Sequence record: OR539218.1
Strand: one strand, 5' to 3'
Length of the DNA stretch: 64,000 bases
Source of the DNA: Escherichia phage vB-Eco-KMB26
Part shown: positions 19,077-46,851 of the stretch, piece after piece
Layout: every line of letters begins with the position of its first letter
Position numbering within the stretch: the first letter of the stretch is position 1
Notes under the pieces: generated by a model
The model's input: only the letters and a program-made list of their open reading frames with translations
Database searches by the model: none
What the model was told of the DNA's origin: nothing
Program-made: the position numbers and the translations under genes

Positions 19077-19370
19077 TTACTCACCTACCACTTCAGCGAT
19101 GATATTTTTATTATTAAAGTTTTTATCGCAATACAGAACATAATTATACTGCATTACACCACCAGATTTAAGTTGTTTTTGCACTTCAGCTTTCATTTCA
19201 GGACGATCACGTTCAACGATATTCATAATATCCGCTTCAATTTGAATTTCAACTTCAGTCTGATCTGCAGTCATAGACCATTCGCACAAATCTTTGTCAT
19301 AACCCGCCATAGCAGGCTGAGCAGCGCAAGAAGATAAAGCAAAAATTGCAGCAAAGATAAATTTTTTCAT
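19077..19370 (-). CDS. sp: Spackle-like periplasmic protein
   Basis: 97 aa with a 22-aa signal peptide (MKKFIFAAIFALSSCAAQPAMA); size and sequence match recalled T4 Sp. Confidence 0.7.
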   Translation of the reverse strand: MKKFIFAAIFALSSCAAQPAMAGYDKDLCEWSMTADQTEVEIQIEADIMNIVERDRPEMKAEVQKQLKSGGVMQYNYVLYCDKNFNNKNIIAEVVGE

Positions 19371-19430: not shown

Positions 19431-19730
19431 TTATTTTAAAACTTCTGCATAATCACATGTTACAAACTGTTTCTCTAACTTGGCGATTTTACGAAAGTAT
19501 CTTTTGCATTGACGAATCTGTCGCTTTGTAGGGCGCACAGCAAACTTAATAAATTCCACTCGACCAAATGGAGGGCTTTCTTCTGCCGGAATATCTAATA
19601 CTAATTCCCACGTATCTGCAATAAGTGCTTTGAATTGAGTATTTTTCCTGACATTATACGGAGTAGGTTTAAATAAAACGATATGCATATTATCCTCGGC
19701 AATCCACTTCACATACCTTCTTGTCATCAA
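19431..19730 (-). CDS. hypothetical protein (61.4 position)
   Basis: 99-aa basic ORF. Confidence 0.5.
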   Translation of the reverse strand: MMTRRYVKWIAEDNMHIVLFKPTPYNVRKNTQFKALIADTWELVLDIPAEESPPFGRVEFIKFAVRPTKRQIRQCKRYFRKIAKLEKQFVTCDYAEVLK

Positions 19731-19872
19731 TGAAAGCTTTAACTAGTGCTTTATTAACTTCAGCATATTGAGTAGTAGCCCATTGAACGTCATCTTTCAT
19801 CATTGTGATCTCTTTAGTAAACATGCTTTCGTTCTTAAACCACCCCATAAAAACTACCTTTACCAATTCCAT
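19690..19872 (-). CDS. Dmd-like small protein (61.5 position)
   Basis: 60 aa, the size recalled for T4 Dmd; early promoter directly upstream. Confidence 0.45.
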   Translation of the reverse strand: MELVKVVFMGWFKNESMFTKEITMMKDDVQWATTQYAEVNKALVKAFIDDKKVCEVDCRG

Positions 19873-41948: not shown

Positions 41949-42419
41949 TTAATCATGTGTCCACACCCCATCGGTATTTGACCAAAGTCGCTGATTATCT
42001 GATCCTCGCCACAGCTTTTTGGTCGGAAGATTTTTCTCATACTTCCCATCAATAATAACATCAACATATTTAAGCATTTCTAGCTGTTTAATATCTTCAA
42101 ACTTATATCCTGTCCACAACCAAATGCTTTTATTGGGATAAAGATTTTTAATAGTTTGAACCACAGAGTGAATCACGTCTCTGTTATCAGGATAAAGAGG
42201 GTCACCTCCGGTTATAGTTAATCCTTCTATATAATCATTATTCAAACATTCAATCAATTGTTCTAGTGTTTCACCAGTGAATGGAATACCATTTCTAGCA
42301 TTCCATGTTGATTTATTATAACACCCTTCGCATTTATGCAAACAACCTGTAACGAAAAGAACGACCCTGCAACCAGGGCCATTCACAAAATCGCAAGGAT
42401 AAAATCTATCATAATTCAT
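41949..42419 (-). CDS. nrdG: anaerobic ribonucleotide reductase activating protein NrdG (radical SAM)
   Basis: 156 aa with a Cys cluster CLHKCEGC. Confidence 0.85.
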   Translation of the reverse strand: MNYDRFYPCDFVNGPGCRVVLFVTGCLHKCEGCYNKSTWNARNGIPFTGETLEQLIECLNNDYIEGLTITGGDPLYPDNRDVIHSVVQTIKNLYPNKSIWLWTGYKFEDIKQLEMLKYVDVIIDGKYEKNLPTKKLWRGSDNQRLWSNTDGVWTHD

Positions 42420-44233
42420 TGATGCTTAACCCTATGCATGATTTCTTTATTTTTGCCGAGATTAAATCCGCGTTCGTTCGGATTTCCCAAATAACCACAT
42501 GTTCTTCTTATTGTGTTCATCTTTTTAGGATCAGTTTCTCCACAAATAGAACAAACAAATCCGTTTTCAGTAGGAGTCATTTCATGGGTACTTCCACATG
42601 TAAAACATTTATCTACTGGCATATTAACACCAAAATAATCTAAATGTTGTGCAGCATAATCCCAGACAGCCTCAAGACCTTTTAGGTTATTTTTCATATC
42701 AGGAAGTTCAACATAAGAAATGTGACCACCTGTCGCAATGAAATGATATGGCGCTTCACGAGAAATTTTTTCAAACGGAGTAATATTTTCTTCTACTGAA
42801 ACGTGGAAACTATTAGTATACCAGCCTTTATCGGTAACATCTTTTACACTTCCATATTTTTCTGTATCAAGTTTACAGAAGCGATAACAAAGGTTTTCAG
42901 CAGGAGTCGAATATAAACTAAAAGCAAACCCAGTTCTTTCAGCCCACTGTTTAAGACGAGCATTCATTTTAGTTAAAATTTCTTGTCCAATATCACGACC
43001 AACAAGAATATTCAATTCATGAATACCAATGTATCCTAAAGACACTGAACTTCTACCGTTTTTAAATAACTCAATTATGTCGTCATCAGGTTTAAGACGA
43101 ACCCCGAATGCACCTTCTTGGTAAAGAATAGGAGCAACAGTCGCTTTAACTCCTTTTAAGGAACTAATTCTACACATCAAAGCTTCAAAACATAAATCCA
43201 TTCGCTCATTGAACAATTCAGTAAATTTCTGTTCATTGAACTGTGTTCCAATATAAGAATCCAACGCAATACGAGGAAGATTCAGTGTTACAACACCAAG
43301 ATTATTACGTCCATCAAGAATTTCATTACCGGTTGAATCTTTCCACGCACTCAAGAAACTGCGGCAACCCATTGGAGAAACAGGAATAGATGAGCCGGTG
43401 ATAGCTTTATTGTTCTTAGCTGAAATAATATCAGGATACATCCTTTTGCTTGCACACTCTAGAGCAAGCTGCTTAATATCATAGTTCGGATCGTCTTTAT
43501 AAAGATTAACACCTTCTTCAACGAACATAACAAGCTTAGGGAAAATAGGAGTTATCCCATCACGACCGAGACCTTTAATACGATTTTTCAGAATTGCTTT
43601 CTGAATCATTCGTTCAGTCCAGTCAGTTCCCGTACCAAATGTAATTGTTACAAAAGGAGTCTGTCCGTTTGAACTAAAGAGAGTATTTACTTCATATTCA
43701 TAAGCTTGGAATGCATCGTATACATCTTTTTCTGTTTTAGATTGAGCATAATTTAACGCATCAGCGATTTGCCATTTTTCTGCATCCTCAATATGTTTTG
43801 CATAGGTGCGTTTAACATAAGGAGAAAGTATTTTATCTACATTCGCAAAAGTCGTTCCGCCGTATTGGTGAGAAGCAACTTGCGCAGTAATTTGTGCCAT
43901 AATTGCAGTAGCAACGCCAATTGATTTAGGAGTTTCAATCTGTGCATTACCAAGCTTAAATCCGTTTTCAAGCATTCCTTTTAAATCTACTAAACAACAA
44001 TTAGTAAATGGAAGAGCAGGGGAATAATCAATATCATGGAAATGAATAATTCCGCTTTCATGCGCTTTCATAATAAAAGACGGGACCATATTTTTGGCAA
44101 TGTGTTTAGACACAATACCAGCCATAAGGTCCCGTTGAGTTGGAAAAACACGAGAATCTTTATTAGCATTCTCGTTTAAAAGGTCTTTATTAGTTTTATG
44201 AATCAATCCTTCAATTTCTTTTTCAATTGTCAT
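42416..44233 (-). CDS. nrdD: anaerobic ribonucleoside-triphosphate reductase NrdD, intron-less
   Basis: 605 aa continuous ORF with C-terminal glycyl-radical motif RRTCGYLG and zinc ribbon CFTCG...CSICG. Confidence 0.9.
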   Translation of the reverse strand: MTIEKEIEGLIHKTNKDLLNENANKDSRVFPTQRDLMAGIVSKHIAKNMVPSFIMKAHESGIIHFHDIDYSPALPFTNCCLVDLKGMLENGFKLGNAQIETPKSIGVATAIMAQITAQVASHQYGGTTFANVDKILSPYVKRTYAKHIEDAEKWQIADALNYAQSKTEKDVYDAFQAYEYEVNTLFSSNGQTPFVTITFGTGTDWTERMIQKAILKNRIKGLGRDGITPIFPKLVMFVEEGVNLYKDDPNYDIKQLALECASKRMYPDIISAKNNKAITGSSIPVSPMGCRSFLSAWKDSTGNEILDGRNNLGVVTLNLPRIALDSYIGTQFNEQKFTELFNERMDLCFEALMCRISSLKGVKATVAPILYQEGAFGVRLKPDDDIIELFKNGRSSVSLGYIGIHELNILVGRDIGQEILTKMNARLKQWAERTGFAFSLYSTPAENLCYRFCKLDTEKYGSVKDVTDKGWYTNSFHVSVEENITPFEKISREAPYHFIATGGHISYVELPDMKNNLKGLEAVWDYAAQHLDYFGVNMPVDKCFTCGSTHEMTPTENGFVCSICGETDPKKMNTIRRTCGYLGNPNERGFNLGKNKEIMHRVKHQ

Positions 44234-44703
44234 TTTAAACTCTTTCTAAGCTGCTTCTTGAATGAAGCTATTAATTGTGTTTTGGTGTCAGATTCATTAT
44301 ATTCAAATCCTCTTTGAAGCATCTCGGCCATCATTTCCTCTTTTCCGAAACGAGAAAATTCCTTTGATTTATCTCCAACAAAGTTAGGGTGAATATTATT
44401 TTGGGTGTAATCGGATTTTAAATAAGTAAGTAAATTTTCTAACCATTCAAGATAATCAACACCTTGTCCCTTTAAGCCAGAACGATTAAATTTATGCTTC
44501 ATTTGACCTTCTGCGGCATTGCATAGATTACAAAGCAATCCACGTACCTTTCCTGCTTTTGGTCCATTTAATTCATGGTCATGATCAAGATGATTAGCTT
44601 GAACATCAGGATTTAGTTCTCGTTGGCAAATTAAGCATTTACCGTTTTGTGCATTATAAAATTTTTGTTTTTCTTCTTTGTATAATTTGCCAGTCAATAA
44701 CAT
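44230..44703 (-). CDS. 49: endonuclease VII (Holliday-junction resolvase) gp49
   Basis: 157 aa, zinc-binding CLICQ...HLDHDHE...CNLCN; matches recalled T4 gp49. Confidence 0.9.
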   Translation of the reverse strand: MLLTGKLYKEEKQKFYNAQNGKCLICQRELNPDVQANHLDHDHELNGPKAGKVRGLLCNLCNAAEGQMKHKFNRSGLKGQGVDYLEWLENLLTYLKSDYTQNNIHPNFVGDKSKEFSRFGKEEMMAEMLQRGFEYNESDTKTQLIASFKKQLRKSLK

Positions 44704-44709
44704 AATAAA

Positions 44710-44735
44710 ACCCTTACCTTAAATAGATAAGGGTA
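44710..44735 (-). promoter_or_regulatory. stem-loop sequestering the gene 49 Shine-Dalgarno
   Basis: acccttA ... Taagggt inverted repeat (7-bp stem, 12-nt loop) overlapping AAGGTAAGGG just 5' of the ATG. Confidence 0.45.
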
Positions 44736-44745
44736 TTTATTATTT

Positions 44746-44922
44746 TTAAGTATTGTAAAACATTCGATGCAATCGTTTATACTGTCGAATCATCTTTTTA
44801 GTAGGACGAGAATAGGTTCCTACGCAAGTGGTCATATGAGGGTCCGTAGAATGTCCTTTAATAAAAAGTTTCCAAACCTTACCGCCATTTAACTTTTCAG
44901 TATAAACCAATTCGGTTTTCAT
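44746..44922 (-). CDS. small protein sharing its C-terminal 14 residues with the Pin-like ORF
   Basis: 58-aa ORF not in track ending ...KMIRQYKRLHRMFYNT, versus ...QKIRQYKRLHQMFYNT in the next gene. Confidence 0.4.
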   Translation of the reverse strand: MKTELVYTEKLNGGKVWKLFIKGHSTDPHMTTCVGTYSRPTKKMIRQYKRLHRMFYNT

Positions 44923-44958
44923 TAAAATGTCCTGTCAGAAAAAGAATTTTGAGTTTTT

Positions 44959-45444
44959 TCAAGTATTATAAAACATTTGATGCAATCGCTTATATTGCCG
45001 AATCTTTTGGTCAGAAAAAGAAATTTGAGTTTCAAGCCATTCAATGTACTCTGCGGCAGCTTGCATCAGGTTACCTTCATAGCCATCGTTATTTTCTTGT
45101 GCAGCTAATTTAGCTAATGCGTATGAAATACGTTCACCTTGAAAATCGGCTTTAGGCTTCTGAACAACTTGATTAGTTCGCTCTACAACTTCTTCAATTT
45201 CGCCATTTTCGACTGATTCAGTATTCCACAAGCACCAATACGTAATTGGCTTATCGTAGATGTTAATAATCTTTCCGTCGGAAAGTTCAATTTCAATAAT
45301 TCCAGTGTCAGGCTCTATATCATCTTCACATTCTTTTACAAGTTCACGAACTTTAAAGACAGTACCTGCACTAAGTTCCGGCCAGTAATTACATAGCCCT
45401 GTATCAACACGATTAATTCTAAACCACTTATCTACTGTAATCAT
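44959..45444 (-). CDS. pin: Pin-like protein (protease inhibitor position)
   Basis: Track ORF trimmed to the ATG after GGAG (161 aa, the size recalled for T4 Pin); identification is by position and size. Confidence 0.45.
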   Translation of the reverse strand: MITVDKWFRINRVDTGLCNYWPELSAGTVFKVRELVKECEDDIEPDTGIIEIELSDGKIINIYDKPITYWCLWNTESVENGEIEEVVERTNQVVQKPKADFQGERISYALAKLAAQENNDGYEGNLMQAAAEYIEWLETQISFSDQKIRQYKRLHQMFYNT

Positions 45445-45566
45445 GTCCCATCTCCATATCAATTAAGTCATTTATCGTTGGTTCATTATATACTGTTTCT
45501 TCATCAGTGTAAACCGGTTCTTCCGGCTCTGGCTCTACAGTTTCCCATCTAGCCGCCCACCAAGGT

Positions 45567-45737
45567 TTAACCCCGAAGCTTATTAAGTTCTTCATAATCA
45601 ATCCAGGATTCTAATCCTGATGGCAAATCAGATTCAATTTCCCAAAGAAGCTCTTCAATTTTCTGAAGACGATCTAGTTCTTCGGCTGGAATAGTAACCA
45701 TTGACGGAGCTCGTGATACATTAATATCGTAAATCAT
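45567..45737 (-). CDS. small acidic protein
   Basis: 56-aa ORF not in track (MIYDINVSRAPSMVTIPAEELDRLQKIEELLWEIESDL...). Confidence 0.35.
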   Translation of the reverse strand: MIYDINVSRAPSMVTIPAEELDRLQKIEELLWEIESDLPSGLESWIDYEELNKLRG

Positions 45738-45739
45738 AT

Positions 45740-45955
45740 TTACCCCAATTTAACCATACAATCGCCGTATTTCCACTTAGAAATAGACTTTTCACCATTA
45801 GAATAATAAACTTCGAGTTTAGCACGATTATTTTTAATTTGAATAACCTTGGCTGTCATCAAAGTTCCATACCCATAATAAACTGCAACTTCATCACCTA
45901 CATATACCGCGCTTCCGCGGTAATCATGAATATAGTCAGTTCCTTCGAGCATCAT
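45740..45955 (-). CDS. small hypothetical protein
   Basis: 71-aa ORF, 4-nt overlap with nrdC. Confidence 0.5.
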   Translation of the reverse strand: MMLEGTDYIHDYRGSAVYVGDEVAVYYGYGTLMTAKVIQIKNNRAKLEVYYSNGEKSISKWKYGDCMVKLG

Positions 45956-46215
45956 TTAAAATATTCTCGCAGTTGGTCAAATCCACCAATATGACTTCCA
46001 TCAGGAGCAAATACCTGAGGCATTGTCAAGCCGATTTGAGTATCACGACCTAGTTTAGTCAGAAGCTCAGCGATTTTCTCATCATCAAAAACACCTTTTT
46101 CCGGCATAATGTTGATAAATTCAAACGGCTGTTTCTTCACAGTCAAAAGACGTTTTGCATTATCGCAATACACGCATTTATGAATGTTGCTATCATAACC
46201 ATATACTTTAAACAT
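45952..46215 (-). CDS. nrdC: thioredoxin/glutaredoxin NrdC
   Basis: 87 aa with CVYC active site; matches recalled T4 thioredoxin. Confidence 0.9.
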   Translation of the reverse strand: MFKVYGYDSNIHKCVYCDNAKRLLTVKKQPFEFINIMPEKGVFDDEKIAELLTKLGRDTQIGLTMPQVFAPDGSHIGGFDQLREYFK

Positions 46216-46216
46216 A

Positions 46217-46459
46217 TTATTCCTTAATTCCTAGTACTTGTTTAAAAGTCTCGTCGTAATCAAGACTTTGGCCCGTTTGTTCTTTATGTTTGTATATAAT
46301 ATCACTTACTTCTGATAGCATATTTTTATATGAACGAGTTAAAGCAGATTTAAGCACGCTGTATCTATCAGGAAATTTACCGTGTTCATTATAATAAGCT
46401 ATTGCTAATTCACGGACTGCCTTTTCAGCAGCCTCCATATATTCTTTACGCTTGGTCAT
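46217..46459 (-). CDS. small hypothetical protein (nrdC.1 position)
   Basis: 80-aa ORF. Confidence 0.55.
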
Positions 46460-46461
46460 TT

Positions 46462-46851
46462 TTAATCCAAAATATTATTAGGCATTGGTTGAACACTCAC
46501 AAGTTCTTTAAAGAACTCAGTAGAGTCAGGCAATTTAACCATTTCCGGAGCATGCTTACTGAATTTATGTTTACATTGACGGCATTTATATTCAAGCTCT
46601 GGTTTACGCCAGTTAATCAACTGAACTTGTTCAGTACCGCATTCAGGGCAATTAGGAACGTTTTTAGAAGCTCTTTCACGTCGTTCAACCATAGCCATAA
46701 TAGCATCCCATGCTGGAGGTTTAAAATCTAAATCGTCGCAGCCGTGAATCTTTCCACGCATTTCCATATCATCTTCCTCACCAGCCATAATAATTTTAAT
46801 TAAACTGGAATTACTTGAAGCTGCAATGTCTTCTAATAAACGCTTTTTCAT
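46462..46851 (-). CDS. zinc-ribbon protein (nrdC.2 position)
   Basis: 129 aa with CPECG...CRQC. Confidence 0.55.

Follow-up and report, generated by a model that had tools for sequence, protein, structure and literature searches.

Here we report that a 64,000-nucleotide (nt) stretch of DNA from Escherichia phage vB-Eco-KMB26 (OR539218.1; hereafter the window, to whose positions all coordinates refer) carries, between pin, the gene for the PinA inhibitor of host Lon protease, and gene 49, repeats that are probably the footprint of two successive illegitimate recombinations in a variable slot of T-even phages (we put the probability at about 0.7). Comparison with relatives suggests that the C-terminus of PinA is a captured fragment of the neighbouring gene, a 58-codon open reading frame (ORF58) of the DUF7279 family, and that such capture happened more than once. 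The point is new and modest; we know of no earlier description of the PinA C-terminus as chimeric. The minus strand holds all genes in 42.4-47.8 kb, and pin was taken as the ATG reading at 44959-45444 (the longest listed frame starts at TTG and has 167 codons).

The repeats and the genes that share them

Codons 148-161 of pin with the stop codon (44959-45003) and the end of ORF58 (44746-44790) are identical at 39 of 45 nt (86.7%), with a start-to-start spacing of 213 nt, and when lengthened by one codon the two copies, B1 in pin and B2 in ORF58, agree at 41 of 48 nt. The initial annotation, made from the sequence alone, had reported a repeat of about 45 bp at roughly 87% identity, which is borne out; it also held that both proteins end in the same 14 residues, and the tails (IRQYKRLHQMFYNT in Pin, IRQYKRLHRMFYNT in the ORF58 product) do match, at 13 of 14 residues rather than all 14. 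A second repeat was overlooked: the 3' end of the pin core (copy A1, 45010-45032) recurs directly upstream of ORF58 (copy A2, 44934-44956) at 22 of 23 nt with a spacing of 76 nt. On the coding strand the order is pin core, A1, B1, stop, A2, AGGACATTTTA, the ATG and body of ORF58, B2, stop, a hairpin and gene 49.

The B1/B2 match is genuine and far above chance. A fortuitous similarity or an assembly artefact might be suspected, given that the region is AT-rich and the similarity is weak just past the stop codons, but this explanation is refuted: when 44500-45500 was shuffled 200 times, the best-matching 45-mers agreed at 26 positions on average and at no more than 30 of 45, 113 phages that were sequenced independently share the structure, and the alleles described below differ by exact blocks. 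The window is a Tequatrovirus, in which 44650-45500, used as an 851-nt query, is 100% identical to YUEEL01, PYps14T, EC101 and others, and is wholly covered by RB33; matching Tequatrovirus records annotate the stretch as protease inhibitor, hypothetical protein and endonuclease VII. In 113 GenBank phage records, RB32 included, the match extends over the whole of a 141-nt query across the arrangement. The comparison with T4 and relatives proposed in the initial annotation thereby finds the repeat in 113 phage records, T4 itself being without ORF58.

Other identities for the repeats were rejected. A repeat-bounded mobile element or homing cassette for ORF58 was dismissed, only DUF7279 having been matched and no endonuclease, transposase or integrase, and a target-site duplication was dismissed on the ground that the flanking repeats are pin and ORF58 coding copies from different lineages. 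A structured RNA element as the identity of the repeat or hairpin was also rejected, no Rfam family having matched: a scan of 43500-46500 gave nothing above threshold, its sole match being ohsC_RNA at 26.5 bits (gathering threshold 50; E 0.41).

ORF58 is, as the initial annotation had it, an independent reading frame. It matches Pfam DUF7279 (PF23945) with residues 7-56 on profile positions 1-53 (62.7 bits; gathering cut-off 24.5) and PHROG 3272 over positions 1-58 of 59 (E 3.4e-34), and full-length homologues with 38-100% identity were found by tblastn in 363 phage records belonging to five genera (Tequatrovirus, Gaprivervirus, Dhakavirus, Mosigvirus, and Gelderlandvirus). Pairwise ratios of nonsynonymous to synonymous substitution rates (dN/dS) are 0.08-0.33. 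Because of these family matches, cross-genus homologues and the purifying selection indicated by the dN/dS values, we count ORF58 as most probably a genuine gene for a conserved small basic protein (isoelectric point, pI, 10.15) of DUF7279. Its C-terminal motif RPTKK.IR..KR.HR.F (R39, P40, T41, K42, I45, R46, K49, R50, H52, R53 and F55) is invariant among orthologues down to 57% identity, and its length agrees with the family size of about 50-60 residues; DUF7279 paralogues in Mosigvirus and Gelderlandvirus hold a looser form of the motif. B2 contains I45, R46, K49, R50, H52, R53 and F55 of this set, and the repeated segment accordingly reads as the most conserved part of ORF58. Within Tequatrovirus, the ORF58 tails read differ only synonymously, the numbers being small.

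In the AlphaFold2 model of ORF58, strands are predicted at residues 2-9, 15-22 and 31-37 and the sole helix at 42-56 (predicted local distance difference test, pLDDT, 81.7, the other four models being lower); this predicted C-terminal helix corresponds to the tail common to Pin. ORF58 thus resembles other members of Pfam DUF7279 and PHROG 3272 in matching the profile over its full length and well above the cut-off, and differs from them in that, in the window, its C-terminal helix is also found grafted onto another protein. A full-text literature search for 'DUF7279' found nothing. PDB sequence searches with Pin and with ORF58 gave no matches. A fold search with the ORF58 model in BFVD returned uncharacterised phage proteins only (best, a Salmonella phage S16 protein, E 1.2e-4), and the PDB offered a single integrase arm-binding domain and, from PH-like domains, unspecific fragments with three strands and a helix (Z not above 6.6); no functional inference was drawn from either search. 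A profile search of 1.84 billion representative proteins yielded nine matches at E <=0.001, of which the long ones were weak and multi-stretch, and nothing was learned from them on domain architecture.

Pin itself is a clear member of its family up to the repeat. Residues 4-141 match the MEROPS/Pfam family Inhibitor_I24 (PF10465) with 160.6 bits (cut-off 27), residues 1-146 match PHROG 2167 (E 1.1e-65), the protein is near-identical to T4 ORF 49.1/Pin, and phage records with 100% identity call it a protease inhibitor. The C-terminal 15 residues (147-161) fall outside the Pin profiles, are not part of the Inhibitor_I24 family, and match PHROG 3272 at positions 44-58 weakly (E 0.0098). Relatives commonly do without them: Pin of Tequatrovirus PP01, G50, HMD-9 and KAW1E185 ends in SFSDRAF, that of Mosigvirus in EYLERRLS, the Pin C-modules of VR7 and JS10 in RFSDE(V/A)F, and homologues with 40-45% identity in KSF or RGF, and altogether the tail is missing from Pin in about 140 Tequatrovirus records and in every other genus examined. 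In outgroup phages that have an ORF58 homologue, the homologue retains it.

Alleles of the slot and the origin of the window arrangement

Four alleles were distinguished by the distance between a fixed anchor in pin and another at the start of gene 49. The window type (355-356 nt; the window and IMG/VR locus L013) combines the 161-residue Pin with a relic of a pin end and ORF58; the ancestral type (280 nt; PP01, G50) has a 148-residue Pin ending in SFSDRAF, whose stop overlaps the ORF58 start (TAATG), and an ORF58 with the tail; the T4 type (142-143 nt; T4, T2 and several IMG/VR loci) has the tailed 161-residue Pin and no ORF58; and the shortest (110 nt; KAW1E185) has the 148-residue Pin alone. 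The four differ by exactly the predicted blocks. IMG/VR gave only six pin loci, too few for allele statistics. Because outgroup Pins are tail-less and their ORF58 homologues keep the tail, we infer that the 148-residue Pin with ORF58 is the ancestral arrangement, a direction that is well supported. The 'partial duplication or module shuffle' of the initial annotation was therefore a correct description, to which the relatives add a direction, the tail being native to the DUF7279 gene and Pin the recipient.

T4 PinA binds and inhibits Lon (PMC8835725 and the 1998 papers of Hilliard et al. cited in it), and its 161-residue form is the one used in biochemical work (PMC8835725). The window Pin has the same length, differs from T4 Pin at few positions, and lies among the same neighbours (49, 49.1, nrdC) behind an early promoter; T4 Pin also carries the same captured tail (RMIQQYKRLHQMFYNT). 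Unlike T4, which is without 213-214 nt including ORF58, the window retains the donor gene together with a remnant of a pin end that had no tail. Tails of tailed Pins form a series of equal length, from RMIQQ in T4 through QMIRQ in protein cluster P0020 (460 member sequences) to QKIRQ in the window and QKIRQYKRLN in P0025. The constant junction length and the stepwise variants RM, QM and QK argue for a single origin of the T4-type fusion; two independent origins for the RM (T4-type) and QK (window-type) junctions were rejected in view of the abundant QM intermediate and the equal junction lengths.

The history that we favour would begin with a 148-residue Pin ending in SFSDRAF, its stop overlapping the DUF7279 gene start (TAATG). 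An in-frame deletion of 138 nt would have run from the penultimate pin codon, through the pin stop, to codon 43 of ORF58, joining …TCTGACCGA to ATGATTCG… and leaving the Pin core with the last 15 ORF58 codons, that is, the 161-residue T4-type PinA. In a second step, which we infer, this tailed pin would have been joined just past its stop to an ancestral-type segment of a divergent lineage, a segment starting some 23 nt short of the 3' end of the pin in that lineage. The join would lie in an A-run beside a shared CTTGAAA, a heptamer that occurs after the last codons of the tail and also inside pin. The result would be a restored, intact ORF58 preceded by 35 nt of dead pin, which now bears the ORF58 ribosome-binding site.

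Several features of the window are consistent with this course of events. The A2 region reads as a dead copy of an ancestral-type pin end, because it matches A1 at all but one position, because with the next 12 nt it would encode TQNSFSDRTF and a stop, and because its T-to-A (I-to-N) variant is present in functional ancestral-type pins (LF73P3, P0029); the relic aligns to the pin end of PP01 and G50 (…TCTGACCGAGCGTTTTAATG). Over the 45 nt compared, 1-2 nt separate B1 from the tails of ancestral-type ORF58 (HMD-9, LF73P3) and of T4-type pins, against 5-6 nt between B1 and the neighbouring B2; the two copies thus appear to come from different sources rather than to be most closely related to each other. 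The body of the window pin shares 94-97% identity with T4-type pins, compared with 88-93% for pins that lack the tail. A listed 40-codon frame starting at TTG (44922-45044, minus strand; ending EKTQNSFSDRTF and stop) is only the pin relic in its old frame, out of frame with pin, and very unlikely to be a gene. Read-through or frameshifting from pin into the relic or ORF58 was likewise rejected, the relic being out of frame with pin and having its own stop.

A number of points weigh against the two-event history. No living donor was found with the …TCTGAC AGGACA TTTTAATG junction or with the HSTDPH variant of ORF58; exact-pattern scans for a donor (…TCTGACAGGACATTTTAATG directly after the pin core) gave 0 in viral and metagenome contigs, and the best 30 phage matches to a synthetic donor junction were all two-piece, window-type alleles. 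The relic differs from sampled ancestral types at 4 of 6 nt (CGAGCG vs AGGACA), so that either the donor was divergent or the sequence changed later. Compared with a clean CTTGAAA crossover, three additional A residues are present where B1 meets A2, the breakpoint being approximate, and microhomology at the junction of the first step is at most 1-2 nt. Finally, the allele frequencies among about 506 Tequatrovirus-type records (113 window-type, about 249 T4-type, about 69-76 ancestral-type, and about 68 with the 148-residue Pin alone) were estimated from the coverage classes into which the matches of three BLAST searches fell, rather than from inspection of each record. In an alternative history, the block of pin 3' end and ORF58 would have been duplicated in tandem within one lineage, the end of B being joined to A, with the first copy then losing RAF, the stop and the ORF58 body to give the window allele, and with T4-type alleles arising later by deletion of A2-ORF58-B2. 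The B-to-A join is exactly the product of a tandem duplication, no separate donor lineage was sampled, and the window ORF58 body lies 6-11% from ancestral-type bodies, about as far as the pin bodies (7-12%), which fits vertical descent of the block. Duplication in place takes, however, one event more (three against two) and a full-duplication intermediate that has not been observed, and leaves B1 nearer to the tails of foreign ancestral types (1-2 nt) than to B2 (5-6 nt); T4-type tails end in TGA as B1 does, so that a B1/B2 crossover would be confined to the last 4 nt, and no chimeric HRMFYNT-TAA tail occurs among the sequences read. Because the two-event history involves fewer events and no unseen intermediate and accounts for the B1/B2 distances, it is preferred, and duplication in place appears unlikely.

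Deletions, duplications and gene fusions through illegitimate or short-homology recombination are familiar in the plastic regions of T4-like genomes, and the mechanism proposed for the two-event history is ordinary for such regions. As in other plastic regions, the content of the slot varies between relatives and the junction microhomologies are short or absent: ACGTTT in a Mosigvirus-type fusion described below, TTTTA..AT in KAW1E185, and CTTGAAA with its A-run in the window. The present case differs from usual events of this kind in that each of the four allelic states is still found among sequenced phages, which makes the order of events readable, and in that one product altered a biochemically studied protein. 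Two records of this locus carry small lesions that reflect either a decaying gene or a sequencing error: in the window-type allele of MLP2 (701-872 of locus L018) a 2-nt deletion frameshifts ORF58, and in VIPECOOM03 (around 690 of L020) 1 nt is deleted in the final pin codons. In MLP2, moreover, a homing endonuclease is annotated immediately behind gene 49, at the place of nrdD in the window.

Pin-DUF7279 fusions elsewhere and the role of the tail

Genes of DUF7279 adjoin pin in four genera, namely Tequatrovirus, Mosigvirus (on both sides of pin), Dhakavirus and Gaprivervirus, and at least three independent Pin-DUF7279 fusions were found: the T4-type tail, a Mosigvirus-type tail, and an N-terminal, full-length fusion. 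More distant T4-like phages have pin without a DUF7279 neighbour.

Mosigvirus-type phages appear to repeat the allele series independently and through different junctions. phiC120 (L005, 478-1080) has Pin and a downstream DUF7279 gene; in locus L021 (1501-1926) Pin is fused to the last 9 residues of the downstream DUF7279 gene (EYLERR joined to FHRDFYNVY), by deletion at an ACGTTT microhomology; and mar005P1 (L006, 901-1498) has neither the tail nor the downstream gene. A second DUF7279 paralogue lies directly upstream of pin in these phages, unannotated in mar005P1. In protein P0046 (191 residues; L022 and L023, 1501-2076), found in two independent ENA metagenomes, this upstream paralogue is in frame with a full-length Pin, a 1-nt deletion (TATTGATATG to TA-TGATATG) having abolished the stop codon.

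Separate genes encode the parts of Pin in Dhakavirus and Gaprivervirus (JS10, L008, 429-602 and 602-904; VR7, L004, 456-629 and 629-901). JS10 has first a 57-residue C-module (PHROG 9092; Pin profile positions 94-145), then a 100-residue N-module (positions 5-75), and then the DUF7279 gene, so that the order of the modules is permuted. VR7 has the same C-module first, followed by a frame that by eye does not resemble the JS10 N-module; it resembles a 94-residue frame (1946-2230 of L024) which, on a distant T4-like contig, lies between pin and gene 49 in the place of the DUF7279 gene and could itself be Pin-N-module-like. The slot is termed variable because this frame replaces the DUF7279 gene there.

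The recurrence of these fusions bears on what the tail does. The initial annotation suggested a decoy or a competing peptide for a shared binding partner; in a broader form, the basic DUF7279 helix would be a portable module for interaction with, for example, Lon, acidic Pin or nucleic acid, through which Pin gained a function and ORF58 and tailed Pin act on, or compete for, the same partner. The three or more independent fusions speak for such sharing, as do the adjacency in four genera, the tailed allele being the majority (about 362 of about 506 records), and the complementary charges of the acidic Pin core (pI 4.26) and basic ORF58. Adjacent genes in a deletion-prone slot also fuse by chance, however, and Pin tails have diverged at positions that DUF7279 orthologues keep unchanged (R53Q in every Pin tail, H52N in one common variant, R46Q in T4). 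Tail-less Pins are the rule in the other genera examined and frequent within Tequatrovirus, about 68 records lack both tail and ORF58, distant T4-like phages dispense with the neighbour, and in the Pin model the tail is a low-confidence prolongation of the long C-terminal helix (residues 121-159; pLDDT 47-63). Selected sharing of the module is judged improbable. In view of the replacements at invariant residues, the many tail-less Pins and the records without tail and ORF58, the tail most likely rides on Pin as a tolerated passenger, lengthening the C-terminal helix without being required by the inhibitor.

The likeness to Rosetta-stone fusions is evident, Pin and DUF7279 being separate neighbours in some phages and fused, in three ways, in others; unlike such fusions, two of the three carry only the last 9-15 DUF7279 residues rather than the domain. 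It is doubtful that Pin, or another gene against abortive infection such as dmd, works together with DUF7279 proteins, that their basic helix is a transferable binding module for Lon, the acidic Pin core or nucleic acid, and that the repeated grafting of the helix or of the whole protein was selected; if this were true, tailed PinA, the form in all biochemistry, would behave differently from the ancestral 148-residue inhibitor. Either way, T4 PinA is the reference phage Lon inhibitor, its last 15 residues would be a graft, and natural 148-residue Pins are common, so that structure-function and Lon-complex studies of PinA should reckon with the grafted tail. The four surviving alleles offer a natural experiment with and without the Pin tail and with and without ORF58, the locus would provide a clean, datable case of small phage genes fused, lost and re-acquired in T-even plastic regions, and DUF7279 becomes a candidate for a Pin- or Lon-related function.

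Layout, expression signals and a second paralogue

Features of the region are listed in Table 1. The strong promoter-like site upstream of pin lies at the place equivalent to 'early promoter P1' in the T4 record Y00122 and is presumed to be the start of a pin-ORF58 transcript; pin and ORF58 are probably transcribed as one early unit. ORF58 begins 36 nt past the pin stop, with a Shine-Dalgarno-like AGGA from the relic (44930-44933) 7 nt before its ATG; in the ancestral allele the TAATG overlap sets ORF58 up for predicted translational coupling to pin. The hairpin after ORF58 has a fold energy of -18.2 kcal/mol (z -3.78) and is annotated as a terminator in the G50 and KAW1E185 records. It pairs the region immediately before the gene 49 start, and AATAAATA at 44735-44745, just upstream, resembles a T4 late-promoter box. 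Gene 49 in T4 is under early and late control, with which the hairpin and late-like box would fit.

Table 1. Features of the pin-gene 49 region, in window positions
Feature	Position	Strand	Evidence or remark
nrdD	42416-44233	-	
gene 49, endonuclease VII	44230-44703	-	
Hairpin or terminator between ORF58 and gene 49	44710-44734	-	terminator-like scan match; T-run; stable fold
ORF58, DUF7279 family, 58 residues	44746-44922	-	Pfam PF23945, PHROG 3272
Copy B2, ORF58 codons 44-58 and stop (MIRQYKRLHRMFYNT)	44746-44793	-	native C-terminal helix
Non-coding, putative relic of ancestral-type pin 3' end	44922-44956	-	A2 at 44934-44956, then AGGACATTTTAA
pin (PinA, host Lon protease inhibitor), 161 residues	44959-45444	-	T4-type, with C-terminal tail
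Copy B1, Pin codons 147-161 and stop (KIRQYKRLHQMFYNT)	44959-45006	-	probably captured from DUF7279 gene
Copy A1, final 23 nt of Pin core (ETQISFSD)	45010-45032	-	repeat search; sequence checked
Sigma-70-like early promoter upstream of pin	45485-45513	-	TTTACA-17-TATAAT, 11/12 matches
Small frames, then nrdC	45952-46215 (nrdC)	-	

A second DUF7279 paralogue is found elsewhere in the window (19431-19730, minus strand; Pfam E 3.1e-20, PHROG 2375), where its motif (…VRPTKRQIRQCKRYFRK…) is followed by about 15 further residues. Its real start is probably the ATG at 19688 rather than the listed TTG, and by position we take it to be T4 gene 61.4. It lies between dmd (19690-19872; Pfam Dmd, E 1.6e-46) and a 97-residue, spackle-like frame with a signal peptide (19077-19370), so that within the window the DUF7279 family adjoins two anti-host genes, pin and dmd.

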